Shown: in pieces, positions 3,148-47,688 of the stretch
How the letters are laid out: each line of letters opens with the position of its first letter
Position numbering within the stretch: position 1 is the first letter of the stretch
Origin: a virus
Lineage: Duplodnaviria > Heunggongvirae > Uroviricota > Caudoviricetes
IMG/VR virus record: IMGVR_UViG_2785510761_000002
Length of the DNA: 64,000 nucleotides
Reading direction: 5' to 3' (one strand)
The notes under the pieces: generated by a model
The model's database searches: none
What the model saw: only the letters and a program-made list of their open reading frames with translations
Told to the model about the DNA's origin: nothing
Translations under genes and position numbers: made by a program

Positions 3148-5631
3148 CTACGGTCTGGGGATGTACTGGTACGGATCGATGTTCTGCGGGATGCTCGTCG
3201 GGCTGGTGGACAGAGCGAAGTGCGCGTGAGGGCCAGTGGTGCAGCCGCTCATACCCGCGCTGGCGATCTGCTGACCGGCTTTCACTTTCGATCCCACTGG
3301 AGCGGTTGTCCCCTTGGTGAGGTGCGAGTGAGCGGAGTAGATCACCTTGCCCTGGTACTCATGCTTGACGATCACTGCAACGTTGTTTCCGTGCCACGGG
3401 GCTGGGCAGCCGGCCCAGTATGGCGAGATTGGAGTGTCATCTCCTGAGTAGACGACGACTCCGTCATAAGGTGAGCACTTCGCGCCACCCGGCGCTGATC
3501 CCATGTCCAGAGCGTATCCGTCGTGGTAGCCCTGGTTGATGGAGAACTGGTCGGACGGCCAGAACCACCCGGTAGCGTCATTTTTCGGGTTGCAACTGCC
3601 GTCAGCAAGCCACGTGCTTGAGGCTTCCTCGTCCGCACACTTTGTGACTGACGCAGTGGCGGTCTCGCTTGAGTCGCCTTGGCCCCCGGTGCCATCTGCG
3701 AATTTCCACTTCTTGGGGTCAGCTTTTACCTTGCTGCTGTTGAACGCAGTGTCAGCTGCGCGCGCATTCTCCGCACGCTTGTCTGCCATGGCTTCATGAT
3801 CTCCAGGGCGCTCGTATCCAAGAAGGAACGCCTTTCCGGCCGCTACTGGATCGTCGGAGGAGAGCCAATCCTCCATGGAGTCAAAAGTGCCAGGGGCATT
3901 GCGCTGCACGTACGGCCATACAGCCTTGTTCTTGAACTCGAGCCCCCACATGGCGGCGATCTGGTTTTCGATCGACCATGACCCGCCAGTCATCCATGGC
4001 TCTGCCTTTGAAGCTGGCAGGAATTGGAAGAGGCCCTTGGCGCCAATCGAGTTGGTGACCTCTACGTTGAACCCAGACTCCTGCTCGATGTTTCCGAGCA
4101 CACCTGCGGCGAACGCGCCAGAGACCCCATACTCCTTGGTGAGGATGTCGAAAATCTGCTGCGCTACCGCATGTTTTTCCGTGCCCGGCTTTAGCCAATC
4201 GCCGGACGCGTTCGAGCCTGGCTGAGTTCCGTTGCTCGCAGGTTTGGCATCACTTGCGCACCCGATGGTGCCCAGCTCCCACTCAAGCGCTTGATCGAAA
4301 ATTTTCTCGGCGTTCGATCCACTCACACCTGCTTCCTTGAGGGCGTTCACGTACAACGTTTTCGTGGCCCTGTGTTTGTTGAACAGCGCTTCGCTTCCAC
4401 CGTCATCCGGGTCGTAGATCGCCCGTGCACGCCCCTCTGACTGATTCGCCGCCACCGCGCCAGCGGCGACATTGCTGTATGCGCCACTTGGATCCGCCCA
4501 GCTGAGGATCTTAGAGAAGCTGTAGAGGTCCCAACCGAACACCTGCTTGGAGTCTTTCGCTGACTGCCTGTCTCGGTCAGACTTCACGGTGTCGTAATGA
4601 TCAGCTGCTCGTGAAACAGCTTGTGACACCGCATCCACCTCATCGGACGGTGGCGTTTCAGCGGCGTTTTCCGGTGCCTCGACGGGAGCTTCATTAGAGT
4701 ACTCAACCGGGCCGCGCTCCTTGAGTCTCTCAAGTTCTTCGGCTTGCTTGTCCTCGTCGTTGCCGATTCGTTCGTTCGCAGCGAGCACGATAGTCCACGG
4801 TGCACTACTGCCGGTGAATGAGAGGGCATGCTGCACTCCACCAATCGAGTTTCCGGAAACCTCCGACGCGTTGACCGATGCAACTTTGCTGGTGTGAACC
4901 CCTTCATCTGCTCCACCGCTGCCGATGCTTGTCAGCATGAGCAGGCCGATCCCGAGCGCCATAGGCATGGCTCCAATAAGCACCGCGAGCACCATGAGTA
5001 CGGAGTTCCGGAACACCTTATTGTTGGTGAAGGTGCCGCCAAGCCCTTTGAGAGCTCCGAGCGCGGCGCCGGGAACTCCGCCTTTTGTTGCGGCGCCCTC
5101 GGCAGCACCAACGGCAGCGTCTTTCAGCGCCTGCTTTGCTGCGCCCCCTCTGGTTCCCTCATCCTCTGGCTTGGATTTCACCAGCTTGTCTGCGGCCCTG
5201 TTTGCCGCGCCGCTGATCGCAGACCTTTTCCCCGGCGCAGAACCGCCTGGCCGACCATGCGAGGCCGCGGCCTTCGGTGCGGTGGCACTGGCGGCCTTTG
5301 CTCCGGTCGCCTGGGCTCTGGCACCAGTTGGGGAGGTCTGAGCGATCGGAGCTGCGGCTGAGTTGGCATCTGCGCTTGTTGAGCTGGGCGCTGTTGGCTG
5401 GGGCGCTGTAGCGCCTCGGGCGGAGGTAGGCTGTTGGCTCTTCTCCTGCTGAGGTCGCACTGGCGCGATTGTCCTGGGCCTGTTCGGCGGGCTGACCATC
5501 GTGCTTCGTGAAGTGGCGGGCTGGTCAGAGGGCGGAGTTTGTGACCCCTCATGCTCGTCAAGCTCGACGCTACCTTCAATCTCTTCGGCTTCTACGTCGT
5601 CATCGAGCTCTTCGTGTTCACTCAAAACCAT
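3148..5631 (-). CDS. membrane-associated peptidoglycan hydrolase (lysozyme-like domain plus C-terminal M23 metallopeptidase)
   Basis: 827 aa. The C-terminus carries the M23 signature MSGCTTGPHAHFAL (G.SG.STGPHLHF). The central region has a GNIEQESGFN motif reminiscent of the phage-tail or CwlT-type lysozyme-like family. TM helices (VLMVLAVLIGAMPMALGIGLLMLTSIG) precede a long Ala/Pro/Ser-rich N-terminus. Confidence 0.75.
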   Translation of the reverse strand: MVLSEHEELDDDVEAEEIEGSVELDEHEGSQTPPSDQPATSRSTMVSPPNRPRTIAPVRPQQEKSQQPTSARGATAPQPTAPSSTSADANSAAAPIAQTSPTGARAQATGAKAASATAPKAAASHGRPGGSAPGKRSAISGAANRAADKLVKSKPEDEGTRGGAAKQALKDAAVGAAEGAATKGGVPGAALGALKGLGGTFTNNKVFRNSVLMVLAVLIGAMPMALGIGLLMLTSIGSGGADEGVHTSKVASVNASEVSGNSIGGVQHALSFTGSSAPWTIVLAANERIGNDEDKQAEELERLKERGPVEYSNEAPVEAPENAAETPPSDEVDAVSQAVSRAADHYDTVKSDRDRQSAKDSKQVFGWDLYSFSKILSWADPSGAYSNVAAGAVAANQSEGRARAIYDPDDGGSEALFNKHRATKTLYVNALKEAGVSGSNAEKIFDQALEWELGTIGCASDAKPASNGTQPGSNASGDWLKPGTEKHAVAQQIFDILTKEYGVSGAFAAGVLGNIEQESGFNVEVTNSIGAKGLFQFLPASKAEPWMTGGSWSIENQIAAMWGLEFKNKAVWPYVQRNAPGTFDSMEDWLSSDDPVAAGKAFLLGYERPGDHEAMADKRAENARAADTAFNSSKVKADPKKWKFADGTGGQGDSSETATASVTKCADEEASSTWLADGSCNPKNDATGWFWPSDQFSINQGYHDGYALDMGSAPGGAKCSPYDGVVVYSGDDTPISPYWAGCPAPWHGNNVAVIVKHEYQGKVIYSAHSHLTKGTTAPVGSKVKAGQQIASAGMSGCTTGPHAHFALSTSPTSIPQNIDPYQYIPRP

Positions 5632-6029
5632 TCACCCGCTTTCCGATCAAGAGTCTCTGGGAAGTATTTACGCCGGCGGGCTGCGATCAGGAAACCCGCG
5701 AGCGCGGACGGCTGCCTCCCGCCTTTTGACAGGTTGTGCGGTGCGCACGCGGCCACCAGGTTCTGCATGGAAGTCGCGCCGCCGCGGGTGTGTGGAAACC
5801 AGTGATCGGCATGCTGCGCAGTTCGCGTGCACCTCGTGAACCACGGGGTCGAGAACTCACACTGATGGCCAGCCCTTGTGAATCCGACATTCCTCTGGGC
5901 GGAGTCGAACGCACGCTTGGGGTCTTTCCTTGCTGTTTTCGGGAGTGCTCGTACCACCAGGATGAGCAGTGCCACAGCGATGGAAGCCAAAGCCCACGTA
6001 GGGACGGAGTGTGCGAGATCCATCAGCAT
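5622..6029 (-). CDS. HNH endonuclease-domain protein with N-terminal TM helix
   Basis: HNH motif HADHWFPHTRGGATSMQNLVAACAPHN (H-x-D-H...GG...N-L...C..H-N). Hydrophobic N-terminus. Confidence 0.6.
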   Translation of the reverse strand: MLMDLAHSVPTWALASIAVALLILVVRALPKTARKDPKRAFDSAQRNVGFTRAGHQCEFSTPWFTRCTRTAQHADHWFPHTRGGATSMQNLVAACAPHNLSKGGRQPSALAGFLIAARRRKYFPETLDRKAGEWF

Positions 6030-7006: not shown

Positions 7007-7627
7007 CTAGAAGTCGAGCTCACCGGGCTGCGGGGTCGGGTTCTGACCCTGCGGAACCTGCGGCTGGGCAACCTGCTGAGGTGCCTGCTGCATCTGCGGC
7101 TGCGGTGCCTGCTGCATCTGCGGCTGCGGTGCCTGCTGCATCTGCGGCTGGGCGACCTGCTGCTGAGGTGCCTGCTGCATCTGGTTCACGGGCTGAGCGG
7201 GTGCCTGAGGCTGGCTCTGCTGAGCCACCTGAGCAGCCGGGTGAGCGTTCTGCTGCGCGGGGGCGCTTTTCTGGAACGCCGCCGTGCCGAAGCGCAGCGA
7301 GATCGCGATGTCTTCTGCCGTGATCACCTGCTTTGAGCGGTTCCCGCCGGTAGCCGTGTCCACCCAGGTCTGGGTTTCGATACGGCCGGTGACCGTGACG
7401 CGCATGCCCTTCTTCAGGCTGAGGTTCGCGTGCTGTGCGAGGTCACGGAAACCCTGCACCTCGAATCGGTTCGTCACGCCGTCCACGAACTTCTGCTGCT
7501 GCTTATCGAAGTGCTGAGGCGTGCTCAGCACGACGAGATTCGAGATGGCAACACCCTGTACGGAGACGAAGGGCTTGGGATCCTCTGCGAGGTTTCCCGT
7601 GATAGTGATGTTGGTTTCGCCAGCCAT
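7007..7627 (-). CDS. ssb: single-stranded DNA-binding protein
   Basis: N-terminal OB-fold similar to SSB (ITGNLAEDPKPF...RFEVQGFRDLAQHA...GMRVTVTGRIETQTW). Q/P-rich tail of imperfect repeats ending in the acidic tip GELDF. Confidence 0.85.
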   Translation of the reverse strand: MAGETNITITGNLAEDPKPFVSVQGVAISNLVVLSTPQHFDKQQQKFVDGVTNRFEVQGFRDLAQHANLSLKKGMRVTVTGRIETQTWVDTATGGNRSKQVITAEDIAISLRFGTAAFQKSAPAQQNAHPAAQVAQQSQPQAPAQPVNQMQQAPQQQVAQPQMQQAPQPQMQQAPQPQMQQAPQQVAQPQVPQGQNPTPQPGELDF

Positions 7628-7720: not shown

Positions 7721-8857
7721 CTACGCAGCCACCCGGTTCCCGCCGAGGTTCAGCAGTAGCGTTTGCACCTTGGAGCGGAACGCGTTGCGGCGGGCTCGTG
7801 GAATCTTGGGTGCTGCTGGGCAAGTGTGCTGAACGCCAGACCTGGTGACCCGGCGGCACTTCTGGCAGCGATCCACCTGGACACGTTCCGCCCGGTTCTT
7901 CACCAGCTCGTTGTACGCACGGCCAGGGGACCCAGAGCGCAGAATCTCCTCGTACACCTGACGCGGCACCTCGTACGAGTAGGTCCGGCTGCCCTTCATA
8001 GTGAGTGTCATGGTGTTCGTAGCCCGCTCGAACCCGACCCCCTTGATGAATGAGGGCACGGCCGGTGCCTGCATCTGAGCCCCAGCACGGGCCACGCGAT
8101 CGATCTGCAGTTGCTGAAGGGCGCTCTTGCCCTCGACCACCGTCACAGCTTCACCGCGTGCACGTGCTTCCTGGTTTGCGCGGCGAACATTGGCGAAGTG
8201 CAACTCTGCGTCCTTGAGCGCCAGCGACGGACGTCGTGCCTCGAGTACGCAGGCAACAGACTCTGCAGCGCGGTTCTTGGACACGTGATCAGGGAATCCG
8301 AGAGCCTGCACGTCCCATGCGCCGCCGGCCCCTTCGGTCACGCGAACGTACCCGGAGATCCGGCCGCCGCCGTGCTCCATCTCGATCGGCAGGTCAAACG
8401 TCTGTCGTTTGTTCTCCTTGGAGAATCGACGAATCGCTGTGGCGCTCGGCATGCGCAGGTTTACTCCTGCACCGTGGTAGTTCATACGGTGGGTTCGACG
8501 ATGGCCACTAAGGGCGTGCCCATCAGTCATGCCTGGAGTGTAATCGTCGGGCATGATCTTGTATGCGTGGTGCCCTTCGGGCTGCTGCTCCATCCGCTCA
8601 TAGTGCTGCTGCCACCACACATCGATTCCTTCGGTGAAGCTCGGGTTCGTCGCTGACTCCACTGTCGAGGCGTGCGCGTACCCGACGCGCTCAAGCTGCG
8701 CGATGATTGCCTTGCGCTGCTCGGCTGCGTCACCCATGCCTGCGTACACAGGGGGAGGGCCACCTGCGCTGCGGTTGTGGGAGGCGTAGCTTCCTCCGGA
8801 TCCACCCCGGGCAGTCTTCCCGAGTCCAAGGTCTGCGCGTCGCGTCTGGTTTGTCAT
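7721..8857 (-). CDS. leader-family protein 1: conserved N-terminal leader (MTNQTRRADLGLGKTARGGSGGSYASHNR..PPP) plus a unique C-terminal region with a C-terminal CxxC..C..P cluster
   Basis: Shares the roughly 40-aa N-terminal motif with 10 other ORFs in the window. Upstream motif GCCGCACGTAATCGTCGAC-ATG. Confidence 0.7.
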   Translation of the reverse strand: MTNQTRRADLGLGKTARGGSGGSYASHNRSAGGPPPVYAGMGDAAEQRKAIIAQLERVGYAHASTVESATNPSFTEGIDVWWQQHYERMEQQPEGHHAYKIMPDDYTPGMTDGHALSGHRRTHRMNYHGAGVNLRMPSATAIRRFSKENKRQTFDLPIEMEHGGGRISGYVRVTEGAGGAWDVQALGFPDHVSKNRAAESVACVLEARRPSLALKDAELHFANVRRANQEARARGEAVTVVEGKSALQQLQIDRVARAGAQMQAPAVPSFIKGVGFERATNTMTLTMKGSRTYSYEVPRQVYEEILRSGSPGRAYNELVKNRAERVQVDRCQKCRRVTRSGVQHTCPAAPKIPRARRNAFRSKVQTLLLNLGGNRVAA

Positions 8858-9029
8858 GTCGACGATTACGTGCGGCTGTTGGGTCAGCGGCGGTTCGGTG
8901 AAACTGCGCTATGCAGTGCAGTGTCGCCCCACGGTTGGCTCCGCTCGATATTCGAGGGCTCAACGAGCTCCAAAACCGACGCTCATACCTAGAGGGGGTA
9001 TGCAGGGTACCCCAGTGGGGTATATGTTG

Positions 9030-9330
9030 TCAGTTTTGCCCGGGTTTGGGCGTGTTTTGCCCGGGTTGCTCGCCCGCTTGCTCGGGCTACTTCCCTTACG
9101 GGAGTAAGGCTCTCCCGGTTTGCACGGTTTTTCTGGAAATCTGCCTCCCCTATAGACAGTGAGTAACTGTTTCACCGGTTTTGAGGTTCTGCATCTATCT
9201 ATCTATTTCTCTAATAAGAGATAAATAGATATAAACCCGAGTAAACCGGGAGAGCCCTACTCTCGTAAGGGATGCAGCCCGAGCACGAACCCGGTTTTGC
9301 CCGGGCAAGGCCGAGTAAAACCGGGCAAAC
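9030..9330. repeat. iteron-like direct and inverted repeats flanking an AT-rich core (candidate origin)
   Basis: The 13-mer TTTTGCCCGGGTT occurs three times direct and once inverted. A longer inverted pair, TTACGGGAGTAAGGCTCTCCCGGTTTGC / GTAAACCGGGAGAGCCCTACTCTCGTAAGG, brackets the AT-rich palindromic core TCTATCTATCTATTTCTCTAATAAGAGATAAATAGATATAAA. The region is non-coding in all six frames in a 70% GC context. Confidence 0.4.
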
Positions 9331-9977
9331 GGCGAAACCATGCCATTTTCGAGGCTCACACCCCGGTCGCCGGCCCGAGGAGGGTACTTGCGCGCAAACG
9401 GTGCTCCCGCAGCCGATCCCAAGCGCCTGCGTAGAGGCGCCCCGAAAACGGGTGCGGGGCCGGGAAACGAGCGTCCAGGGCCGTTTCCGGCCGCGTTCAA
9501 CCTCTATCGGCGCCCCGAGGACGCGCAGTGCTCCTGAAATCGGCTGAATCGTGGTCGTTATGCACGCGCGCCTACGCGCGTACGCGGGCGCGCGCCCGAC
9601 CGGGGGAAACACTCGCGATTGGACGAAAATCTGAAATGCAGTGTGCGCTCCGTCATGCTGTGAGTTGAGACGCTAGATACCTCGAAAGAGCCGCATACCC
9701 CCACCCCTCAGCAAAAAATGGTTGCTGCGACCTGTCACAGGTTTGTCACGGTAGGCTCAGTCGAGCGTTCCCTCGCCTACCGTGCGGTTTGAGCATTCAC
9801 CTTGCAGAGGATGGGCGCCTTCAATTCGCTTCACTGGTGCTGGCGATTACGCTGCGGCAGTAACAAGCATTCTCACACTGGCGGGTCGGCTTCTCGTCAG
9901 CCGGAGGCATTGATCCGTGTGATCCCGGCTTGCATGTCGTTGAGGGTAAACGAGGCGTGCCGCGCATAAGAGTGTGC

Positions 9978-10739
9978 ATGAAGTCTGCTTCCAAGCTTGG
10001 CGTCTCAGCAATCGTGCTCATCGTGCTGGCCGGATTCCTCATGGCCACGAACATGTGGGATCCGTCTGTCGTCTCATTCACGAGGCACGTGGTGGGCGAC
10101 AAAGCCGCGAGTGCTCTCGACACCACCGCCCGCGGCAGTGTCGATGCATCCAAAAAGTGGGTCGATGAAGCCAAGGATATGACCCTGGAGGATCTGGTTC
10201 AGAAGGCCCGGGAACTTCCTGCCCCAGAGATTCGGAGGATCCCAAAGTACGACCGCGAGGCGCAGTTCGGAACCTGGGTGAACAACGACCTCGGATGCAG
10301 CACCAGACAGATGATCCTCGCGCGGGATCTGGACAATGCTCAGCTCGACGAAGACGACTGCACTGTCCTCTCAGGAACGCTGACCACTGACCCGTATAGC
10401 GGGAAACAGATCGACTTCATCAGCGACCGCGCCGGCGGTGACTCACGAGCGGTGCAGACGGAAACGATCGTTCCGCCTTCCGTCGCTTGGAGGTCCGGAG
10501 CATCTACCTGGACTCAGGAGCAGCGCGCAGCGTTCATGAACGACCCGGACAACCTCATCTCCGTAGGTGAGAAGTCAAGGGCTGACAGGAGCGACAAAGC
10601 GCCGGATCGGTGGATGCCTGCGAACAAGAGCTATGGCTGTTCCTTCGCTGAGGCGTACACAAATGTCACGGTGAAGTACGGACTCTCGCTGGACACGAAG
10701 ACCAGGAACTTCCTCGTAGAGACGTTGGCGCAGTGCTAG
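9978..10739 (+). CDS. hypothetical secreted or membrane-anchored protein
   Basis: Start taken at the internal ATG (MKSASKLGVSAIVLIVLAGFLMATNMW) giving a signal/TM helix. GCCGCGCATAAGAGTGTGC-ATG start-associated motif upstream. Confidence 0.5.
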   Translation: MKSASKLGVSAIVLIVLAGFLMATNMWDPSVVSFTRHVVGDKAASALDTTARGSVDASKKWVDEAKDMTLEDLVQKARELPAPEIRRIPKYDREAQFGTWVNNDLGCSTRQMILARDLDNAQLDEDDCTVLSGTLTTDPYSGKQIDFISDRAGGDSRAVQTETIVPPSVAWRSGASTWTQEQRAAFMNDPDNLISVGEKSRADRSDKAPDRWMPANKSYGCSFAEAYTNVTVKYGLSLDTKTRNFLVETLAQC

Positions 10740-12814
10740 GCCTAGTCACCGGGACTGTTGATGACCCCGAAATCAGGATCTCATTCCCATATGACGCAAT
10801 CCACGCTCCATCGCGTTCGCCGCTGCGCGAGTACATCAAAGCCAAGTGTGATGCCCGATGGGACAAAGCAGCTGGTCAGTGGGTGATCACCGGGACACCA
10901 CGTCATCCTGATGAGTTCTTCGCAGGCTGTGGAATCACTCTTCACATCGACAGGGAAGCGTTCCCAGGTGTCACCAGTGCTGAAGAGCTACAGCGCCCGT
11001 TTGGAGTGCTCGCGCCCAACGGGCGGCAAGTGCAGGTGCACTCCCGCATGACGTCGCGCGCCGAGCTCCTACATCTGCTCGGCTACGCTGCCCAATGGGA
11101 TCGGGAGGCAAAAGTAAACGTGATCCCTGTGACTGACGTGTATCTCAATGGTCAACTGCGGCCTCAGGTTGAGTGGAGCGAAGAAGCCCAGTGGGCGGCG
11201 TACCGGGCGCTCACCGCGAAGGTAGCCGTTTCCGGGCTCGAAGAACAAGCCGAGGCCTGCGGCAGGGTTCCGAGCGTAGACGAATCGTTCAAATCCTGGT
11301 TCGAGAGCTCAGTGGCATCGATGCCGGAGTGGTGGGACTGGGACAGTCGGGAACCATTCCCTCACCAGTTCCCCGGCGCGTACAGTGCCGTACTCGGGCA
11401 CCGTCTCATTGCTGATGCGCCAGGCGTGGGGAAGACAAACACCGCCATCATGTGTGCCGGGCTCAAGCGATCCAAACGCATCCTTGTCGTCTGCCCTCCA
11501 AAACTATCCCTGAACTGGGGGCACGAGTTTGCCCAGGCGGGGTACCCGCATCAGATCCGCGTCTTTCGCGCTGGCCCACTCAGGAAGAAGGACAAGGAGC
11601 CGTTGCCGGACGAAGGAGTGGTGGTCGTTGGCGATTCGCTGCTGGCTTCTCGTGACGCGCTCCGAGATCAGTTGATCGAGTGGTGCCCGGACTTCTTTGT
11701 GGTGGATGAGATCCACCGACTGAAATCGTTGGCCTCCAAGCGCACGCAGGCAGTGCTCGATGTCGCACATCATGTCCCAGTCTCCGGGCGCTACGGCCTC
11801 ACCGGCACCCCGATCATCAGCGGCCCTCATGAACTCGTGCCGATCCTTGAGTTCACTGGACATCTGGGGCCGGTATTCGGCGGAGCGCACGCATTCCTGC
11901 ATCGCTTCTGCACCTACTTCGAGAAGTTCAAGTCTTTCGCGCCACGCAAGCACGCGCTGCCTGAGTTGCACGCGCTGCTCACCCGCCACATCTGGGTGCG
12001 CCGGCCGAAGTTCGAGGTTCTGAAGATGCTGAGCAAGCCGATCAGCTCAGCGATCGAACTGGACGTAGACGTGAGCGCCTACAAGGAGGCTCACCGTCAG
12101 GTCATCGAGAAGCTCGAAGAGTGGGTATCTACGTTCATTGGAGAGTGGGGTATTCCGCCCGATGAGGAAGCGATCGAGAGCTACCTTGAGCTGAACGCAG
12201 TCGGACATGTGAGTCATCTTCGGCTGGCATCAGCTGTTACGAAGCTGGAAACAGCCACAGAGCTGATCGCAGAGCATGTGGCATCTGACCCCGACAACGA
12301 GTCGCCTCTCATCGTGTGGGTGCACCACAAAGAGGTGCAGCTTGCGCTGGCTGAACAGCTCGAGTCTGAAGGGGTCGCCTATCGAATGGTCGTCGGTGGG
12401 CAGAGCCAGAAACAGTCACAGGAATCCGTTGACATGTATCAGGACGGGCAGGTGCAGGTACTCATCTGCTCGATCACCGCAGCGGGTGTGGGCCTCACAT
12501 TGACTCGAGGATGTGAAGCGCTGTTTGTGGAAACGGACTGGACTCCAGCAATCGTGTCCCAGGCCGTCGACCGGCAAAACCGAATCGGCCAGACCCGGGC
12601 TGTGATCACTCGCACACTCGTGGCGCTGGGAACGCTCGATGAGCACATCCAACGCATCCAACAGAAGAAGGGCGCTATCGCCGGGGTGGTGCACGGGGAC
12701 GACCTCTCAGACGTTGCTGTGCTGCACTCGCAAGACCTTGCCACGCCGCGTGAAATCATCCGCGGGCTGCTTGAACCGATCGTAAAGAAGATGCAGCCGA
12801 AGATCGCCGCGTAA
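10733..12814 (+). CDS. SNF2-family helicase
   Basis: Motif I LIADAPGVGKT, motif II DEIHRLK, motif III LTGTPI, motif V ICSITAAGVGLTLT, motif VI QAVDRQNRIGQTR. Confidence 0.8.
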   Translation: MLGLVTGTVDDPEIRISFPYDAIHAPSRSPLREYIKAKCDARWDKAAGQWVITGTPRHPDEFFAGCGITLHIDREAFPGVTSAEELQRPFGVLAPNGRQVQVHSRMTSRAELLHLLGYAAQWDREAKVNVIPVTDVYLNGQLRPQVEWSEEAQWAAYRALTAKVAVSGLEEQAEACGRVPSVDESFKSWFESSVASMPEWWDWDSREPFPHQFPGAYSAVLGHRLIADAPGVGKTNTAIMCAGLKRSKRILVVCPPKLSLNWGHEFAQAGYPHQIRVFRAGPLRKKDKEPLPDEGVVVVGDSLLASRDALRDQLIEWCPDFFVVDEIHRLKSLASKRTQAVLDVAHHVPVSGRYGLTGTPIISGPHELVPILEFTGHLGPVFGGAHAFLHRFCTYFEKFKSFAPRKHALPELHALLTRHIWVRRPKFEVLKMLSKPISSAIELDVDVSAYKEAHRQVIEKLEEWVSTFIGEWGIPPDEEAIESYLELNAVGHVSHLRLASAVTKLETATELIAEHVASDPDNESPLIVWVHHKEVQLALAEQLESEGVAYRMVVGGQSQKQSQESVDMYQDGQVQVLICSITAAGVGLTLTRGCEALFVETDWTPAIVSQAVDRQNRIGQTRAVITRTLVALGTLDEHIQRIQQKKGAIAGVVHGDDLSDVAVLHSQDLATPREIIRGLLEPIVKKMQPKIAA

Positions 12815-12845
12815 ATCCTGCCCGGACCCGTATGTGGCCGGGCAG

Positions 12846-12998
12846 GAGGCAATCATGAGTTGGCTGAAAGAAGCGTTCACCCCAGACCCTGATGAAGTTG
12901 ATCAAGTCACAGGCCTGTTCACGAGCAAGCGCGGGCTGATCGCGATCGGTGTGCTGCTCGTCGCGATTGTTGTCGGCAGCGTTCTGGCGTTCATCTGA
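12846..12998 (+). CDS. small membrane protein (50 aa)
   Basis: RBS GGAGG 7 nt upstream. Single TM helix (LIAIGVLLVAIVVGSVLAFI). Stop overlaps the start of the next gene (TGATG). Confidence 0.4.
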   Translation, partial: EAIMSWLKEAFTPDPDEVDQVTGLFTSKRGLIAIGVLLVAIVVGSVLAFI

Positions 12999-13621
12999 TG
13001 CGCGGGCAGGTGATCGGCACCGCTGGAGGCGGCCTAACCGGAGATGACTCGTGGGCAAACGCATCGCGCGGAGCTCAGGAGGCGGGCCGTGTAGCAGAGG
13101 TTCAGGTGGGCAACACCCTCTCACGGGTAGCCGAGCGTGGCCCTGCGGTGCTGCATGACCTTCGCATCCCCATTCCCGGTTTCACCGCGAACGTCGACCA
13201 CGTCATCGTGCATGGAAGCCGGGTCATCGTGATCGACTCGAAAGCGTGGGCCGCTGGTCGATATTGGACATTCAGGGGACGAACCCGCATCGGTTTTCGT
13301 CTGCTGGCGCCGAAGCGAGATTCAAAAGACGCGGTACGCACGCTTATTGGACAGCATGCACCTCACTGTGACAAGAAGACGATCCCCACCGCGGTATCCG
13401 CGATGAAACGGTACCTCGAGCAGCAGGGAATCGACGCACAGTTCGACCGCCCCATGCTGGCGATCTGGCAGGACCGGCAGACAAGTTTTGCGGGGTACAG
13501 GCCACAGGGTGACCCGGCTGTTGTCGTCGGGAAAAACCTGGGCAGGTGGATGCGGCGAAAAGTAAAGCCGCATCCCGCCGACCCGGCCATCATCCACGCA
13601 CTCGCACAGCTAGTGAACTAG
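12998..13621 (+). CDS. NERD-domain (nuclease-related) protein
   Basis: NERD-like core VLHDLRIPIPGF...NVDHVIVHGSRVIVIDSKAWAAGRYW. Confidence 0.6.
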   Translation: MRGQVIGTAGGGLTGDDSWANASRGAQEAGRVAEVQVGNTLSRVAERGPAVLHDLRIPIPGFTANVDHVIVHGSRVIVIDSKAWAAGRYWTFRGRTRIGFRLLAPKRDSKDAVRTLIGQHAPHCDKKTIPTAVSAMKRYLEQQGIDAQFDRPMLAIWQDRQTSFAGYRPQGDPAVVVGKNLGRWMRRKVKPHPADPAIIHALAQLVN

Positions 13622-13631
13622 GAGCAGCACC

Positions 13632-16600
13632 TTGGCAACGTCGAAGCAGATCGAGCAGCCGCCTCCCTACACCGTAATCACCTTGGTTGTGACCGTGGCG
13701 CTATGTGCTGTCGCCCTGTTCCTGCAGTGGCCGGCGGCCGTGATCGCGCTCGTGGGAATTCTGGTGGCAGCTTCTCTGAGTCGCAGCCCTCAGCTCACGG
13801 GGCCAAAAGACCCGCAGACCCAGTACCCGACAGTGGGGAATCCGGGGGAGCAGCAAGCACTGAACCGTCACCGATTCTGGCGCACAGTTCCTGGGAAGCT
13901 CCTATCCTGCGGTCCCTTCTGGCCGCTGACCACAAACATGCTGGCAGCAATTGGCGTTGGGTGCATCGCGTTCACTCTTCCGTACGAGGGCGCCGGAAAA
14001 CTCCTGCAGCTCATTGATGGTGTCGGAGCTCTGCCGTTTCTCCCATGGATCAACGGCGTCTTCTCCACTCTGCTCGTAGCTGGCTTCGGGGCAGCTCTGC
14101 GATCGAAGGATCCGGAGAACGGCCCAATGCCGCCCACTGACCTCGCAACGCTCTTAACGCAGTCAACATCGCGTGACCCAAAAACGTTTGCCCTGCTTGT
14201 GCTCGCCGTGAGCGGTGCACTGCTCACCGGGCTGGGGACCTCATGGTGGATCGCGGCGGCGGACTGGTACCTCATTTTCCCGGGAGGAGTCGCAGGTGCC
14301 GGGGCCGCCCTCATCGTGTTCGCACTTGTCACGCATGCGGCTACCGTCACGGAAACCCGGCGCCCATGGCTAGAAGCCTGCGAAGCTCGGGCCACATGGG
14401 CCGCACGATGGCCCTCGATGCCTAAGCTCAAGGAGTTCCCGCAGCTCACCAGTCACCGGAGGCTTGGAGCCAGCGATGAGGTGTGGATTGACGAGTTCCA
14501 GGCCCCAGCGATGCAGGGTGCGAAGTTCTGGATCGACAAGCCAGTTCCTGAGGGTATTGAACCGCTCATGCCTGCCAACACAATGGTGGCCTTCCTGTCC
14601 GTTCCTGACGTAGCCGGTGACGGCAACCCCATCACCTTGAGCAGAAGCGCAACGAAGTTCCGTGTCATCACCTGGAATGGCGATCATCCGCTCGACGTCA
14701 CCGACCCGAAGGTAGACCGTGAGCTCCTCAGCGTCTGGTTCGACCTGAAGGTGAGCGCAAGCTGTGCCGCGGCATGGGGGTCAATGTTCTCGCTCATTCC
14801 ACTGCACGCGCCAGAAGCACTGCACGTCGAGAAGGATGAGTGGATTGGCACCGAGACCGGTGCCTGGAAGATCGAGTACGGGGTGACCCAGGGAGTGAAC
14901 CTCCCCAGCTCAATGGCTGAGTGCGTGTCCAGCGCACAGCTTGCTTTGGGGCAGGAGATCGAAGTGCTGCCCATCGGCACATCCATGTTCATCGGCGCTA
15001 TCACCGCGGAAACCACCCAGCTCGAAGACGATTCGATTCTCGAGCAGCTTGCCTCAGAGCAGGAGATGCAGGCGTGGGAGAAGCGCTGGAAAGACATCAC
15101 CGGGCCAGGAATGCAGGCGCCGGCATACTTCCCCGAGCACGACGGTCAAGAGGAACTCGATTCGCGTACCGTGATATTCAGCCGTCTGTTCGGTGCTCCC
15201 GCAGGACTGTCAGCGAAGGACTACTTTGCGAAAGCCACCCCGGATCGCATCCAGAGCGGGCTGAAAGGCGCGTCCTGGTCCACAGCTTCGTTCTACGTGG
15301 ACCCGCACTCGAAGAAGCGTTACCCGCACCTCATGCAGATCATGTGGTCTGAGCAGCAGATCCCACTGAACCCTGCACGAATCGCACCGACAGATAGCGC
15401 TCGGGCTGCGACCTGGGCGATCACCGGAGCGATCAACGCTGCGTTCCTTGGAGCGAAAATGCAGCGCCCTGAGGTGATGAGCGTGAAGCCGCTCACCAGC
15501 CGGCAATCGCGTGGCCACATCTGGGAGGTAACACTTGCGCTCCTTGATGGAATGACGATGGCTGACGTTCGCAAGAACCAGCAGAAGCTCATGGCTGCCC
15601 TTGAAGGCTGCGAATGGTTGCGCGTCGGCGCCAGCACCCGTGGATGCCGGATCCTGTTCGGTGCGATGCCCTCATCTCGCCGCACTTGGGCGAACAAGGA
15701 CGCGGAAACCTCTGCGCGCAAGCTCGACTGGGAGCAGCATTTCATCGACTCGAAGATCAAGAACGCCCGCGAGGAGACGCCAGAGCTGCTAGACGTTGCT
15801 CCGCTTCCAAAGAACGACCTCGTGCGTGAGTACCGATTCAAGATGCCCGCCGGCCTGGCGATCGGCGACGTGAAGAAAGAGTCCGGGAAGCTCCAGAGCA
15901 CGACCGGGAACGGATTCCTCGATATCCGTCAGGGAGCAACGCCCGCGGAGATGATCATTCAGGCGGCAGAGGAAAGCCCCATGCCGAACCTTGCATTCTT
16001 CAACTGGGACGAAGTGGACGAAAGCAAAGCCGTGCCATTCGCCACCAACATTCAAGGTGAGCCGATGGCATGGGACCCGCTCACGGATCCGCACGTAGTC
16101 CTTCTGGGCGCCACCGGCTCGGGCAAGTCGGCCGCGATTCAGTCATTCCTTACCCCGGCTGCAATTCAAGGGTATGAACTGCACATTTTCGATAAGCCCA
16201 AGGGGGCTGCCGACTTCCAGTACCTGGTGCCGTTCTCCAAGCAGGTTGCGACCGAATACGTGACCATCGCCGCAGCGCTCGAGAACGTCTACAAGGAGGT
16301 TGAGCGCCGCAAGGAGTTGAACCAGCAGTATGGAGCTTCTCGCGTGCGAAACCTCCCCGACGAGGTGCGTCCTCCTCACATGATCGTGGTGATCGATGAG
16401 TTCACTTCCACCATCAAGCCAGAGCTGCTCGACAAAATCACGGGAGACGAGACCGAGGATCAGCTGCGAGAGCGCGAATTCAATGTGCGCACGAACCAGT
16501 ACAAGGGGCGGATCGGTGCGGCTGTTGGAAAGATCATGCGAGAGGCGCGCTCCGCGGGCGTTTCGATGCTCGTGGCCGGCCAGACACTCTCAGCCGACGA

Positions 16601-17372
16601 GATGAAGGCAAGCCCCGCTCTCGGCAACATCAAAAACCAGGCGGCGATGATCCTTCTGGGCAAGGCCTCGTTTGGCCAGCGTGCGTCAGCGTTCAAAAAT
16701 GTGGAGCTTGCTCCTGAACTGGGCGAGAACGTGCCAAAGGGCCGCGGCATCTTTGAAAGCTCAGAAGGCGCTCCGACAATGTTCCAGGCCTGGTACGGGG
16801 CCGACTTCGCAGAGTTCGAGACAGGACCGGAAGCAGAAGCTGCGCACCTCCGGAACATGGTCGACCACATCAGCGCAGCCCGCGACCCAGAGGCGGATCA
16901 ACTGTTCGATGATGACCTCCGCCCAGATGAGTCGGAGATCCGTGCGTTCGGGGAGATCATCCAGCCAGACGCGGCAGAGGATTTCGAGGACGAGGTGATT
17001 GACATGGGGGAGATCGACCTGGAAATCAGCTTCGATGAATTTGACCTCGGCGACGCTGCACAGGATACGACTTCCACTGTGGGGGATGCCCAACTTGAAA
17101 CAGCAGTGACCGCGCTCGAAACGGCCGTGGATCACAATCTCGAGCCTGAGCCTGAGCCGGAGCCTCAGTGGGAGTCCGATATGGTCGTGGAGCCCATCAC
17201 GGAGCCTTCCTCACCCGAGGTGAGTATTGAACAAGCGAACCAGCCTCAGACCATGGATCCAGCAACCGAAGGGGCTCGAGAGCCAGGCGAGCCCGGAGGT
17301 GAAGGTGCCGACGGTATGTTCACCAGAAAGCAATTCTCCAGACCCTCAATGGCCGATGATCTGTTCAAGTAA
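13632..17372 (+). CDS. FtsK/SpoIIIE-family membrane ATPase (DNA-translocase-like; TraB/TraSA- or EccC-like)
   Basis: 1246 aa (TTG start). Four or more N-terminal TM helices. Walker A VLLGATGSGKS, Walker B MIVVIDEF, LVAGQTL. Long acidic low-complexity C-terminus. Confidence 0.75.
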   Translation: MATSKQIEQPPPYTVITLVVTVALCAVALFLQWPAAVIALVGILVAASLSRSPQLTGPKDPQTQYPTVGNPGEQQALNRHRFWRTVPGKLLSCGPFWPLTTNMLAAIGVGCIAFTLPYEGAGKLLQLIDGVGALPFLPWINGVFSTLLVAGFGAALRSKDPENGPMPPTDLATLLTQSTSRDPKTFALLVLAVSGALLTGLGTSWWIAAADWYLIFPGGVAGAGAALIVFALVTHAATVTETRRPWLEACEARATWAARWPSMPKLKEFPQLTSHRRLGASDEVWIDEFQAPAMQGAKFWIDKPVPEGIEPLMPANTMVAFLSVPDVAGDGNPITLSRSATKFRVITWNGDHPLDVTDPKVDRELLSVWFDLKVSASCAAAWGSMFSLIPLHAPEALHVEKDEWIGTETGAWKIEYGVTQGVNLPSSMAECVSSAQLALGQEIEVLPIGTSMFIGAITAETTQLEDDSILEQLASEQEMQAWEKRWKDITGPGMQAPAYFPEHDGQEELDSRTVIFSRLFGAPAGLSAKDYFAKATPDRIQSGLKGASWSTASFYVDPHSKKRYPHLMQIMWSEQQIPLNPARIAPTDSARAATWAITGAINAAFLGAKMQRPEVMSVKPLTSRQSRGHIWEVTLALLDGMTMADVRKNQQKLMAALEGCEWLRVGASTRGCRILFGAMPSSRRTWANKDAETSARKLDWEQHFIDSKIKNAREETPELLDVAPLPKNDLVREYRFKMPAGLAIGDVKKESGKLQSTTGNGFLDIRQGATPAEMIIQAAEESPMPNLAFFNWDEVDESKAVPFATNIQGEPMAWDPLTDPHVVLLGATGSGKSAAIQSFLTPAAIQGYELHIFDKPKGAADFQYLVPFSKQVATEYVTIAAALENVYKEVERRKELNQQYGASRVRNLPDEVRPPHMIVVIDEFTSTIKPELLDKITGDETEDQLREREFNVRTNQYKGRIGAAVGKIMREARSAGVSMLVAGQTLSADEMKASPALGNIKNQAAMILLGKASFGQRASAFKNVELAPELGENVPKGRGIFESSEGAPTMFQAWYGADFAEFETGPEAEAAHLRNMVDHISAARDPEADQLFDDDLRPDESEIRAFGEIIQPDAAEDFEDEVIDMGEIDLEISFDEFDLGDAAQDTTSTVGDAQLETAVTALETAVDHNLEPEPEPEPQWESDMVVEPITEPSSPEVSIEQANQPQTMDPATEGAREPGEPGGEGADGMFTRKQFSRPSMADDLFK

Positions 17373-17408: not shown

Positions 17409-17828
17409 GTGCGCGACATCAGGCAGGCCGCGCCGATAGGTATGAGTTACACCGCAGGAAGACTGCAATCGCTCGGTGAGCAGATGCAATGGACAGTGTT
17501 TGATGCGCAACCTCTGCTCGGCGGGTTCTGCGTGCTCCCCAGCGGCCAGCGAGCGTCGTTTGTCGGAAGCAGTCGCGTCATCACCGACCACGAAGAGCAG
17601 TCACTTGACCCATCGAGCCAGAGAGTCCGCAGTCAGTACTCCGCAAGGCATCTCGGGCCGATTACACGTGAGCTGGTGCGAGATGAATCCCTCGGGCGGG
17701 TGGTCATCTCGTACGAGTTTCAAACCCCGTATGAGCAGGTCACGGCCACTTTCGAGACGCTTGGCGGCTATGATCTGCGTCTGCTGAACGCGTCTGAGCA
17801 CTTGATGGATGATCTGATCTACAGATAA
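17409..17828 (+). CDS. hypothetical protein
   Basis: 139-aa ORF (GTG start) with RBS GAGGAGG upstream. Confidence 0.4.
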   Translation: MRDIRQAAPIGMSYTAGRLQSLGEQMQWTVFDAQPLLGGFCVLPSGQRASFVGSSRVITDHEEQSLDPSSQRVRSQYSARHLGPITRELVRDESLGRVVISYEFQTPYEQVTATFETLGGYDLRLLNASEHLMDDLIYR

Positions 17829-17863: not shown

Positions 17864-18124
17864 ATGTCACACGGAACACACTGGGCTGCTGAGCCGACAT
17901 ATATGCCAGGGGAGTATGTGGTTGTGCCCGACGGCGACCTCAGGTGGGCCGAATGGAGCCCGAAGTTCGGCCGGGCTGATGCGCAGTTGACCGCGAGACG
18001 GTTGAACGAGCGCGGAGCGTCACCTGAAAAGTACCTCTCCGCCCTCTCAACCCTGGAGAAGTTCACACCCACCACAACGATCCAAGTGATCGAGCAGATC
18101 CACGAGGAGGAACCACGCTCATGA
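17864..18124 (+). CDS. hypothetical protein
   Basis: Start moved to the internal ATG (MSHGTHWAAEP) preceded by GGGAAGGAA. Stop overlaps the next start (ATGA). Confidence 0.4.
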   Translation: MSHGTHWAAEPTYMPGEYVVVPDGDLRWAEWSPKFGRADAQLTARRLNERGASPEKYLSALSTLEKFTPTTTIQVIEQIHEEEPRS

Positions 18125-18888
18125 TGGGTGTGAACCACGCAATCTCAGGGGCGGCCGCATGGACAGCCCTCGCCGTCACGGCGCCGGGTTTCCCAGCACT
18201 GGGATACACGCCCATGGAGCCTTGGCAGGTGATCACTGGGGCAGTGATCTGCGCTGGCGCTGCGCTGCTTCCTGACGCTGACCATCACAGTGCGACGATC
18301 GCATACGCCGTCCCTGGAGGGGGAGTCGTCACTGGTGTGGCTGGCGCACTTACCGGCGGTCACCGTCACGGGATGCACTCAATCCTCGCCGTTGTCGGCA
18401 TCTGGTTCGCCACTGGGTGGCTCGCCGGCCTGAGTTGGCAACCTGCATGGTGGGGGTCTGCCATCCCGATTGGCGCAGCGCTCGCCATCATGTTCCTTGT
18501 GACCATCTCACTGAAGGTGTTGAAGTTAGCTAAGAGCTGGCCGCGAGCATGGATGTTCGGCATTCTCGGAGGGGCGGTGCTCGGCCTGGCCATGCCGGAC
18601 GCGCTGGGCTGGTTCCAGCTCGCCGTTACAGTGGGGTACGCAGTGCACCTGCTCGGCGACTACCTGACTGTTCAGGGCATCAACTGGTTTTGGCCGTTGA
18701 AAATTCGTGCTCCAAAATTCATCTCGAACATCCCGATCCTCAAAGACATGTGGGGTGAGAACGGGTACTTTTCCCTGCCGCTGCTGGGCACCGCGGGATC
18801 TTGGCGCGAAGCGATTGTTGGGTGGGTGATGTCGCTCTACGTGCTCGCTGGCTTTGGGGCTTCGCTGCTCAGTCCGCTGCTTCCGTGA
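18121..18888 (+). CDS. multi-pass membrane protein, YdjM/DUF457-like putative metal-dependent hydrolase
   Basis: Several TM helices. LLPDADHHS and GGHRHGMHS His-rich motifs typical of the membrane-bound hydrolase family. Confidence 0.5.
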   Translation: MMGVNHAISGAAAWTALAVTAPGFPALGYTPMEPWQVITGAVICAGAALLPDADHHSATIAYAVPGGGVVTGVAGALTGGHRHGMHSILAVVGIWFATGWLAGLSWQPAWWGSAIPIGAALAIMFLVTISLKVLKLAKSWPRAWMFGILGGAVLGLAMPDALGWFQLAVTVGYAVHLLGDYLTVQGINWFWPLKIRAPKFISNIPILKDMWGENGYFSLPLLGTAGSWREAIVGWVMSLYVLAGFGASLLSPLLP

Positions 18889-27163: not shown

Positions 27164-28083
27164 AGTACGCCCTCCGTCCTTCTAAGATTCTCTCTGAGTT
27201 GATTCTTGATGTTGCAAACTTCCTGTTCACCGTACAACGAGTTGTCGTAGGTTTCGACGAGAATGCGCAGCGCTTTCTCGTCCGCTTCAAGCAATGGCTT
27301 GCGGTGCCCATATTGCTCTCGAGCGAACACAGCAAATGATCGGGCTTGAGCCTCAAGCGCATCCTCTCCGAGGAGCTCCTGCTCCTCCTGGGGAGGGAAA
27401 GCCATCCCGAAATCGAACGGCGGCATGGCCCGGTATGACCCGTCTGCCTGCTCGATCACCCCGATGTTGCTGAGGTTGTTGATGCGGTCGGTGTTCCCGA
27501 TGATCAGGTCGAAGGCTGACATTCGGAGGACATCCTCGCTCAGGCTTGCGCCCGTGGAGGAGTTCATTGTCTCGATCTGGCCCTTGAGCCGCTTCCAGTC
27601 GTCGTTCTCAATGAAGAACTCCTCGTCAGAGTCCCAGTCTTCGTCCTCTTCAACGAATTCGTCCGATCGAAAATACGAGAGCTGCCGTTCGCGCTCTCCG
27701 ACGCTCTTGAAGTTGTGGGATTCGACACCGATCAGCAGGTTGCCGTCTGCGTCTCGGAAATGCTTAGCGTCATACTGCACGGCGTTTTCGAGGCCCATGG
27801 CGAGTGCTGCTCGCCCGGGGAACTCCTCGCGAATGGCCTCGTCGTGCATGGCATCGAGCTTGATGTACGTGTCGCGGTACGGGTCGTAGAACTTCTGCGT
27901 TGATCCACCCATGACACGTGATGTCGAGTCTTCAGCTACGAGCGCGCTGAGCTCACGCACCTCCCTGACTCCGGCATTCACCGGTGGAGCAGCGATATCT
28001 CGTTCGTGTGCAGCGAAGCTTCCGCCGCTGCCGCCTGCTGCGGTTCTCCCGAGTCCGATGTCTTTCCTGCGCGATGTGCTCAC
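27124..28083 (-). CDS. leader-family protein 2 (GTG start: VSTSRRKDIGLGRTAAGGSGGSFAAHERD..PP)
   Basis: Start set at the GTG preceded by GCCGCGCGTAATCATTCAG. The conserved leader is followed by a unique 280-aa region. Confidence 0.65.
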   Translation of the reverse strand: MSTSRRKDIGLGRTAAGGSGGSFAAHERDIAAPPVNAGVREVRELSALVAEDSTSRVMGGSTQKFYDPYRDTYIKLDAMHDEAIREEFPGRAALAMGLENAVQYDAKHFRDADGNLLIGVESHNFKSVGERERQLSYFRSDEFVEEDEDWDSDEEFFIENDDWKRLKGQIETMNSSTGASLSEDVLRMSAFDLIIGNTDRINNLSNIGVIEQADGSYRAMPPFDFGMAFPPQEEQELLGEDALEAQARSFAVFAREQYGHRKPLLEADEKALRILVETYDNSLYGEQEVCNIKNQLRENLRRTEGVLWRRKSPSVTGAL

Positions 28084-28199
28084 CTGAATGATTACGCGCG
28101 GCATCGGGTGGAGATGTTGGACCCCCGCCGTGGACGGCTGCTGCAGGCTGCCGTAGGACGTTGTACACACGTCACTTAGGGATTCGAACCCCAGTCCAG

Positions 28200-47660: not shown

Positions 47661-47688
47661 GGTACTCCTGTCTGGCCAGGTGGCCGGG

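Follow-up and report, generated by a model that had tools for sequence, protein, structure and literature searches.

The 64,000-nt stretch of DNA analysed here (IMG/VR virus record IMGVR_UViG_2785510761_000002; below, the window) encodes a membrane protein of 1246 amino acids (aa) with an FtsK-like motor, which we call the giant. The question raised by this locus is what such a protein does and which of its neighbours work with it. The window is the final 64 kb of the 163,250-bp contig SNYA01000009.1 (assembly GCA_004362775.1) of Leucobacter luti (Micrococcales), which is megaplasmid-like, and between positions 9978 and 18888 eight genes including that of the giant run in one direction with tight or overlapping spacing. 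An earlier reading made from the nucleotides alone (the sequence-only reading) had placed an SNF2 helicase, a NERD nuclease and the giant in one block, compared the first two with defence-type helicase-nuclease pairs and suggested that the giant, together with a nearby cell-wall hydrolase, could form a translocation apparatus and export a family of leader-bearing proteins. Here we show that the NERD nuclease and the giant are strictly linked and, with a small peptide, constitute a conserved core to which the helicase does not belong. We put the chance slightly above even that this three-gene module and an operon resembling a type IV secretion system (T4SS) make up a conjugative DNA-translocation apparatus with a nuclease partner on actinobacterial megaplasmids.

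A small peptide, a NERD nuclease and a giant ATPase form a conserved module

The open reading frames (ORFs) of helicase, nuclease and giant lie where the sequence-only reading had put them, as borne out by the ORF list, by Pfam, by a third-position GC bias as in real genes throughout the block, by the NCBI annotation of SNYA01000009.1, whose gene calls for the block agree, and by the conservation of all block genes in relatives (positions in Table 1). These relatives were gathered from PLSDB plasmids (n=72,556), from one genome per species (20 loci) and from a protein collection; ORF clustering covered 25 loci and tblastn with the window proteins covered 32. As DNA the block had no megablast match among phage records (n=50,697) or plasmids. 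A word-indexed protein search with the giant returned five close relatives, and a repeat with their alignment added none.

The NERD gene is found directly upstream of the giant and on the same strand in all 22 loci that retain upstream sequence; the four loci that have the giant but not NERD are truncated at their 5' end, and a further locus (L025) holds a small paralogue only. Among the PLSDB plasmids this NERD subfamily occurs on just ten, nine of which are Micrococcales megaplasmids with a full-length giant, always adjacent, while the tenth, from Euzebya, also carries a VirB4-like gene. The stop codon of the small peptide overlaps the NERD start, and in at least 13 related loci NERD is directly preceded by an ORF of 43-64 aa with a polar N-terminus and a C-terminal transmembrane (TM) helix. 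The sequence-only reading had noticed neither this peptide nor the GmrSD_C nuclease gene whose end overlaps the SNF2 start. The conserved core thus consists of a tail-anchored peptide of about 50 aa, NERD and the giant. Downstream of the giant, a YdjM gene is present in nine loci. No fusion of NERD and giant was seen among 153 representatives, and a literature search for a NERD-FtsK association found neither a description of one nor a paper describing the NERD-giant module. Two IMG/VR contigs classed as viral (UViG_3300045988_183229 and _181781; L026 and L027) also carry NERD followed by a giant-family gene, the latter at 25% identity.

The NERD protein is 100% identical to an NCBI entry named 'nuclease-like protein [Leucobacter luti]'. 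Its match to the NERD family (PF08378) lies above the gathering score, and it has the E...D...(D/E)xK residues and the restriction-endonuclease fold of that family. In two independent orthologue sets the pattern E...HD...D-H...D-x-K is invariant or at least 90% conserved, and an AlphaFold2 model (mean predicted local distance difference test score, pLDDT, 88.6) matches restriction-endonuclease-fold nucleases exclusively, including nickases and McrC. Residues and predicted fold together indicate that NERD is most likely an active DNA endonuclease. The Leucobacter protein has an insert of 18 aa, RLLAPKRDSKDAVRTLIG, at about residues 101-118 (nt 13298-13351), which is the sole low-confidence stretch of the model and is absent from all 19 other aligned orthologues, including one that is 67% identical.

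The SNF2 helicase and the GmrSD_C nuclease lie outside the core

Both halves of the helicase score above the gathering thresholds of their families (SNF2-related N-lobe 61.3 bits, Helicase_C 35.6 bits). Orthologues over the full length (33-36% identity, coverage of at least 93%) are found on the same Micrococcales megaplasmids at a distance of about 100 kb from the giant; on pACHL01, for example, the giant is at 230.6 kb and SNF2 at 352.8 kb, the latter some 10 kb downstream of the VirB4-like gene. On the Curtobacterium plasmid D40 the helicase gene follows an ssb-HNH-hydrolase cluster, in the same gene order, that is found inverted to the left of SNF2 in the window. Since its orthologues are on these replicons but elsewhere, SNF2 is a backbone gene of the megaplasmid family rather than part of the core. 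It adjoins NERD, as does the GmrSD_C gene, only in the closest relative (L004; 76% identity), and the GmrSD_C gene is lineage-specific, with L004 alone carrying it among the relatives. Helicase and secreted or TM HNH-type nuclease are plasmid backbone, and their adjacency to the core is a local rearrangement.

The helicase is thus not part of a conserved unit with NERD and the giant, and its supposed defence partnership with NERD does not hold: NERD is linked to the giant, the SNF2 orthologues are some 100 kb away, and both proteins stay below every defence-family threshold of PADLOC and NCBIfam. As DISARM DrmD, Zorya ZorD or Dpd DpdE the helicase scores 24-35 bits in NCBIfam against cut-offs of 500-1500; its PADLOC matches cover the helicase core only, and the partner genes were not found. 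Phage relatives of SNF2 are annotated as replication-module 'DNA helicase'.

The giant is a single-motor translocase of the FtsK/TcpA type

The overall organisation of the giant agrees with its first description. Where 'four or more' N-terminal TM helices had been proposed we count six hydrophobic segments by hydropathy (residues 13-233), and between the second and third of these a loop, LTGPKDP...GNPGE...RFW, forms invariant alignment columns. The middle region that follows is a string of small alpha/beta modules that ends in a canonical FtsK/TcpA alpha subdomain; it holds no second ATPase domain, having neither similarity to the motor nor a RecA-like fold. The single RecA-type motor occupies about residues 790-1060 (Pfam FtsK_SpoIIIE domain, residues 793-986). 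One Walker A and one Walker B motif are present, in accordance with the single clear P-loop noted before, and counting by hidden Markov model likewise gave one ATPase domain. Both Walker motifs are invariant in the alignment of relatives, as is an FtsK-type segment, REARSAGV...AGQT. By analogy with FtsK and TcpA the motor would assemble as a hexamer behind a six-helix membrane anchor.

The long acidic tail, also part of the first description, comprises 186 residues with 52 D/E and 9 K/R and is presumably disordered. Its sequence is not conserved in the alignment, yet the region after the motor is acidic across the family. Searching for representatives with residues 1-1100 of the giant as query, we found a C-terminal tip of the form [D/E]x0-2[F/W], no more than two residues from the end (such as DDLF, DDPFA or DEW), in 106 of 150 representatives (71%). 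The same acidic-aromatic pattern is met at 6.8% of random tail positions, which corresponds to a roughly ten-fold C-terminal enrichment.

With 42.6 bits against a gathering score of 24 the giant belongs to the FtsK/SpoIIIE superfamily (PF01580). In a sequence search of the PDB its best solved relative is TcpA of plasmid pCW3 (6o1x; E 1e-8, residues 747-1062), followed by FtsK (E 3e-3) and EssC/YukB (E 0.68), so that the motor is nearer TcpA than other solved ATPases. The sequence-only reading had placed the giant closer to EccC or TraB than to terminases. It is indeed not a terminase and groups with the FtsK-type translocases of conjugation, yet it falls short of the cut-offs for both EccC and TraB. 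We excluded these and other classes because the giant lacks what defines each of them. A chromosomal FtsK would have a gamma winged helix-turn-helix domain (wHTH; PF09397) and an FtsK_4TM domain, neither of which is present, and no FtsK NCBIfam model was listed. EccC and EssC have three ATPase domains instead of one, and the NCBIfam scores for them are 15.8-21.8 bits against cut-offs of 346-778. For Streptomyces TraB the plasmid_TraB model gives 26.4 bits (2.3e-6) against a cut-off of 800, and the tail is acidic without a C-terminal wHTH. A VirD4/TraG coupling protein is not indicated, there being no T4SS-DNA_transf, TraG-D_C or TrwB-type match in Pfam or NCBIfam. A PHROG large-terminase match is at P-loop level (1.1e-5), and no structural genes lie nearby. 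The outcome that would have spoken against the sequence-only reading, a place among packaging terminases or chromosomal FtsK proteins, was thus not obtained.

An exhaustive profile search gathered 306 clusters (50% identity) at E<=1e-30. Among the best 150 of these, all with E<1e-134, 148 are 945-2167 aa long and two are of about 800 aa (one of them P0005). About a quarter of the family members are 1650-2170 aa long and contain LAGLIDADG/Hom_end homing-endonuclease domains (for example L009:9887-16036, L011:9467-15808 and P0070), presumably inteins; in P0070 the insertion directly follows the P-loop. At the C-terminus many of the long members also have HAD_SAK_2 ('Swiss Army Knife RNA repair' HAD). 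The Leucobacter giant has neither domain. Its current annotation is just 'FtsK/SpoIIIE domain-containing protein' and no Pfam or NCBIfam family covers it, so that judged by profile similarity it represents a large, unnamed set of giant FtsK/TcpA-type translocases with at least 300 clusters. What the module adds to the known FtsK-type conjugative translocases is the giant architecture itself, a nuclease and a peptide as obligate partners, and the tip of the tail.

A T4SS-like operon diverges from the module

On the other strand, and divergent from the operon of the giant, lies an operon that includes SSB, an HNH protein and the TM-anchored lysozyme-M23 hydrolase. After the hydrolase come four small or TM proteins. 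The operon runs on beyond the window, where 10 kb to the left were examined, with an 836-aa ATPase and then a 575-aa FtsK paralogue (L033:11092-15380), followed by a 180-aa protein, TM proteins, a Gly-rich 483-aa protein and a 983-aa surface protein with a signal peptide; this part is a probable mating-pore operon. The 575-aa FtsK is soluble and its best PDB match is FtsK (1e-4). The 836-aa ATPase is weakly VirB4-like by sequence: it matches AAA_10 with 3e-6 and 26.9 bits (gathering score 27.5), its only NCBIfam match is VirB4_plasma (2.7e-4, 18.8 bits against 590), and a PDB profile search gave P-loop-level matches only, including TrwK (0.21). Its size, its place beside the hydrolase and its presence on a conjugative plasmid (see below) fit a VirB4. 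Small FtsK or VirB4-like homologues are also found 5-8 kb from the giant in six related loci (L005, L006, L009, L018, L019 and L024).

The suggestion that hydrolase and giant belong to one translocation apparatus stands in part, in that a T4SS-like operon with the hydrolase does adjoin the module. The hydrolase itself is no conserved partner of the giant; on plasmids it matches nothing but genes for a 'phage tail tip lysozyme' of Lactobacillus.

The two divergent operons are 1.1 kb apart, and in the gap lies a repeat-rich, cruciform-capable element. A 53-nt inverted repeat (9079-9131 and 9233-9285) surrounds an AT-rich palindrome (9196-9231), the sequence GTTTTGCCCGGGTT occurs in three copies here and nowhere else in the window, and the predicted DNA fold has an energy of -85 kcal/mol (z -11.2). 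In four related loci we found no counterpart of the inverted-repeat element, a candidate for an origin (oriT or oriV) or for a control region.

Related plasmids link the giant to conjugation genes

The VirB4-like ATPase is present on 16 plasmids, namely on eight of the nine giant-bearing Micrococcales megaplasmids, in Euzebya, in Paenibacillus polymyxa (a weak, partial match with 24% coverage) and in the pMP7017 family of Bifidobacterium. Plasmid pMP7017 is the first conjugative plasmid described for Bifidobacterium (PMC10832533). In this B. breve plasmid we find a giant-type FtsK of 1140 aa (26% identity over residues 616-1055, E 2e-36), directly followed by a 617-aa orthologue of the small FtsK (E 1e-46), as well as the VirB4-like ATPase (27% identity, 95% coverage) and a lysozyme. 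The N-terminal two-thirds of its giant-type FtsK, on the other hand, are without detectable similarity, and its two FtsK genes are adjacent whereas those of Leucobacter are in divergent operons.

The close relatives of the element are plasmids with RepA/ParA or chromosomal islands, with replicon sizes of 130-600 kb. In nine to ten Micrococcales loci a gene annotated by PGAP as 'type IV secretory system conjugative DNA transfer family protein' (fam9; VirD4-like) lies two to three genes upstream of NERD, and a 465-aa protein of unknown function (fam7) is encoded just upstream of NERD in the same loci; homologues of fam9 and fam7 were not found in the window. The Glaciihabitans plasmid has Tad/type-IV-pilus genes, RepA and ParA, and a BspA-type leucine-rich-repeat (LRR) surface protein beside its small FtsK; for its Tad-pilus genes, RepA and LRR protein no window homologues were found.

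A possible conjugative apparatus with a nuclease partner

From the strict linkage, the TcpA-like motor and the shared genes of a conjugative plasmid we infer, with slightly better than even confidence, that module and T4SS-like operon work together in conjugation. The giant would be a membrane-anchored DNA-pumping ATPase, a coupling or translocase protein like TcpA, acting with the hydrolase, VirB4-like ATPase, soluble small FtsK, TM proteins and surface protein of the divergent operon. In the Micrococcales-centred branch NERD may make the nick or end from which the pump receives DNA, and the acidic, aromatic-tipped tail may recruit a DNA-bound partner in the way that the TraD tail recruits TraM. 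On megaplasmids of Micrococcales (Arthrobacter, Curtobacterium, Leucobacter and others) and Bifidobacterium no relaxase or known mating-pair system has been recognised. The giant, NERD, the peptide and the T4SS-like genes would be concrete targets for learning how these replicons move, and module and T4SS-like genes form a marker set that could improve the mobility typing of actinobacterial plasmids.

Several known systems resemble parts of this arrangement. TcpA has about 530 aa and two TM segments, and pCW3 encodes a second FtsK-like paralogue, TcpB. TcpA (Clostridium perfringens pCW3; PDB 6o1w-6o1z) resembles the giant in its single FtsK-type motor and membrane anchor, and pCW3, like the element of the giant, is a conjugative-type plasmid with a second FtsK-like protein, a peptidoglycan hydrolase and a VirB4-class ATPase, putative in the latter element. 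Identity between the two proteins is about 20-25% and limited to the motor. Coupling proteins of the TcpA class (pCW3, Tn916 Orf21) have some 450-550 aa and two N-terminal TM helices and are encoded within the transfer operon. In size and position the giant is not of TcpA type, with its 1246 aa, six hydrophobic segments, about 450 extra residues of alpha/beta modules, 186-aa acidic tail and obligate NERD partner, and with its operon divergent from, and its gene outside, the T4SS-like one. Streptomyces TraB, the weak best NCBIfam match, is likewise an actinobacterial plasmid-borne FtsK-family protein with a single motor, and it moves DNA without a relaxase; unlike TraB the giant lacks a C-terminal wHTH, clt-type 8-bp repeats were not identified, and TraB systems have neither a VirB4-class ATPase nor a nuclease partner. 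F TraD docks DNA-bound TraM by its C-terminal tail, which is flexible, strongly acidic and has conserved aromatic residue(s) (PMC3159463). The likeness of its tail to that of the giant is one of composition and position, not homology: TraD belongs to the VirD4/TrwB ATPase fold family, and no TraM-like partner was identified here.

A parallel to a pump with a nuclease comes from ICETh1 of Thermus thermophilus, where the membrane FtsK-family translocase TdtA shares a transcript with two nucleases, one NurA-like and the other a restriction enzyme, and the donor needs both to export its DNA (PMC7767461). As may be the case in our module, a nuclease makes ends and a pump pushes DNA. The likeness drawn here is one of logic, the Thermus nucleases being NurA and a restriction enzyme instead of NERD, and TdtA works with competence machinery of the recipient and no T4SS-like operon. 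By the same analogy one may speculate that on the megaplasmids and islands of high-GC Gram-positive bacteria peptide, NERD and giant are a DNA-donation machine complete in itself and independent of a relaxase, in which NERD would cut the replicon or any DNA, a six-TM hexamer would push double-stranded DNA through its own membrane domain, and the Phe-tipped acidic tail would dock the nuclease or partners of the SSB/DprA type. We think this unlikely; if true it would explain, by the logic of Thermus TdtA/NurA 'transjugation', the spread of 130-600-kb plasmids that are typed 'non-mobilizable'.

For conjugation by module and T4SS-like operon together, a number of observations count as objections. 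No canonical relaxase, including the TraA type that the sequence-only reading would expect as a partner, was found in the approximately 74 kb scanned, and no oriT or clt was identified. MOB-suite assigns every plasmid with the VirB4-like gene, with the giant or with this NERD subfamily to its 'non-mobilizable' type; pMP7017 conjugates and yet is typed in this way, so current typing misses this transfer system. No NERD was found in the 40 kb of pMP7017 examined around the FtsK genes, nor is any plasmid of that family among the NERD matches, and NERD is therefore not a universal requirement of the apparatus. The VirB4 assignment is weak, with AAA_10 below its gathering score. The hydrolase has no homologue on related megaplasmids, where NlpC/P60 or other hydrolases take its place. 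The small FtsK is encoded within the T4SS-like operon and the giant outside it, and the coupling role could fall to any of the ATPases of the FtsK/HerA/VirB4 classes, of which there are two on the element and three or four on some relatives. Finally, a nuclease paired with an FtsK/HerA-type ATPase is a layout that is common among defence systems too.

Alternative functions of the module

Such a defence or entry-exclusion role, in which an FtsK-type motor captures incoming phage or rival-plasmid DNA at the membrane and NERD degrades it, seems doubtful to us, even if it deserves the most weight among the alternatives. A restriction-fold nuclease paired with an FtsK/HerA-class ATPase is typical of defence, as in the DndH/SspH architecture (PMC10853773), the motor has weak PADLOC matches to SspH (1.7e-6) and mad8 (2e-8), the module is carried by mobile elements, with methyltransferases and other nucleases around it, and NERD was not found near the FtsK genes of pMP7017, so that conjugation there probably has no need of it. 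NERD itself, however, has no PADLOC match and the matches of the giant are generic to its motor domain, whose closest relative is a conjugation protein. The module is moreover a syntenic backbone of one plasmid family, with YdjM, fam9 and T4SS-like neighbours, unlike a gene that shuffles between defence islands, and an acidic aromatic-tipped tail is a docking feature of coupling proteins or of SSB. FtsK-family motors are also known to clear or segregate chromosomes at the septum, and the giant could serve plasmid maintenance as a septal pump like SpoIIIE, SftA or FtsK that clears or segregates the large replicon while NERD resolves or trims trapped DNA. Replicons of 130-600 kb are where septal trapping matters, and a layout of anchor, long linker and motor resembles FtsK. 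We nevertheless regard this as distinctly unlikely, and less likely than a defence or exclusion pair: the gamma domain and an FtsK_4TM match are lacking, no Xer/dif partner is nearby, the motor is nearer TcpA than FtsK, the module co-locates with T4SS-like genes, and a dedicated endonuclease would not be expected for segregation.

Two further readings, an ATPase of a type VII secretion system (T7SS) and a phage terminase, are essentially excluded for the giant. That it might be an EccC/EssC-like ATPase of a T7SS-like system exporting leader-bearing proteins was suggested by its size, membrane anchor and FtsK family, and weak NCBIfam matches to EccCa, EccCb and EssC (E 7e-5 to 2e-3) point the same way. 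With one ATPase domain, scores far below the cut-offs, a distant EssC/YukB match and a DNA nuclease as obligate partner, this is highly improbable. The ORFs scanned contain no EccB/D/E, mycosin or FHA component, WXG100-size ORFs not being systematically scanned, and the role of exporter proposed by the sequence-only reading is thus, together with the SNF2-NERD defence pair, one of two misreadings corrected here. Hardly credible, finally, is the view of the window as a jumbo phage or phage-plasmid in which the giant is a packaging or phage-borne FtsK-like protein. A tRNA/tmRNA array, a Ro/TROVE gene, a match to phrog_1358 ('FtsK/SpoIIIE-like protein', 5.6e-22), the two viral-classed contigs with NERD and a giant at 25% identity, and weak tblastn matches to SPO1-like Bacillus phages could be taken in its favour. 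Yet no large ORF matches a capsid, portal, tail or terminase protein, the terminase PHROG match (1e-5) being to the P-loop only, the other PHROG matches are to families of unknown function, the 50,697 phage records gave no DNA match, and all close relatives are RepA/ParA plasmids or chromosomal islands.

Other genes of the window

Apart from the module and the T4SS-like operon the window encodes DprA, an ImpB/UmuC-type Y-family polymerase, a protein with a GmrSD_N domain and two DNA methyltransferases, of the N6/N4 and C5 types, that appear to be orphans. Such a set is reminiscent of the genes that conjugative plasmids carry in their leading region or use for establishment, and SSB, DprA, ImpB/UmuC and the two methyltransferases fit a plasmid life of DNA transfer. 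An SPFH/flotillin protein and an LRR protein are present as well, together with a DUF7007 protein whose homologues lie near the giant on pACHL01 and in L008.

Table 1. Features of the Leucobacter luti window, in window coordinates.
Feature	Position	Strand	Evidence or remark
TM-anchored GmrSD_C/DUF1524 (HNH-type) nuclease	9978-10739	+	Pfam GmrSD_C 7.4e-6; NCBI call; end overlaps SNF2 start
SNF2-family helicase, 693 aa	10733-12814	+	Pfam SNF2-rel_dom 1e-16, Helicase_C 1e-8
Small tail-anchored membrane peptide	12834-12998 or 12855-12998	+	54 aa (longest ORF) or 47 aa (NCBI)
NERD-family PD-(D/E)xK endonuclease, 207 aa	12998-13621	+	Pfam NERD 2.7e-10
Giant, FtsK/TcpA-type single-motor translocase, 1246 aa	13632-17372	+	Pfam FtsK_SpoIIIE 6e-11
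Giant, membrane domain (residues 1-233)	13632-14330	+	six hydrophobic segments
Giant, middle region (residues 240-790)	14349-16001	+	small alpha/beta modules
Giant, Walker A GATGSGKS (residues 826-833)	16107-16130	+	sole copy in giant (regular expression)
Giant, Walker B IVVIDE (residues 918-923)	16383-16400	+	sole copy in giant (regular expression)
Giant, acidic C-terminal tail (residues 1061-1246)	16812-17369	+	ends ...ADDLFK
Two unknown genes between giant and YdjM gene	17409-17828, 17867-18124	+	
YdjM-family membrane-bound metal-dependent hydrolase	18121-18888	+	Pfam YdjM 2.4e-21
TM-anchored lysozyme-M23 cell-wall hydrolase, 827 aa	3148-5631	-	Phage_lysozyme2 2e-19, Peptidase_M23 1e-9
T4SS-like operon	KTSC 7721-8857, SSB 7007-7627, HNH 5622-6029	-	order: KTSC, SSB, 306 aa, HNH, hydrolase, 227, 198, 116, 363 aa
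Repeat-rich, cruciform-capable element	9025-9340		between the divergent operons
DprA	58865-59818	-	
GmrSD_N-domain protein	60039-60614	-	
ImpB/UmuC-type polymerase	62981-64000	-	
DNA methyltransferase, N6/N4	36469-37854	+	
DNA methyltransferase, C5	38366-40243	+	
SPFH/flotillin protein	46140-47834	-	
DUF7007 protein	48282-49571	-	
LRR protein	60726-62459	-	
tRNA genes, 21	22410-30264	-	ARAGORN
tmRNA	25176-25560	-	Rfam 119.8 bits
Ro60/TROVE-domain protein	20713-22284	-	
DnaQ-like RNase_T exonucleases, two	20084-20641, 43258-43962	-	

The window also holds an array of RNA genes. The 21 tRNA genes found by ARAGORN cover 18 amino acids, and Rfam adds a marginal one at 25963-26043. Within the array is a full-length tmRNA with the tag ASYKQRDLTLAA, which is unusual on a plasmid-like replicon. 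A gene for a Ro60/TROVE-domain protein adjoins the array, and two DnaQ-like exonucleases of the RNase_T family are encoded in the window. Related plasmids carry RNA ligase, HAD/PNKP and NT5C genes, and these together with Ro60 and RNase_T suggest an RNA-repair or RNA quality-control gene set of the plasmid family.

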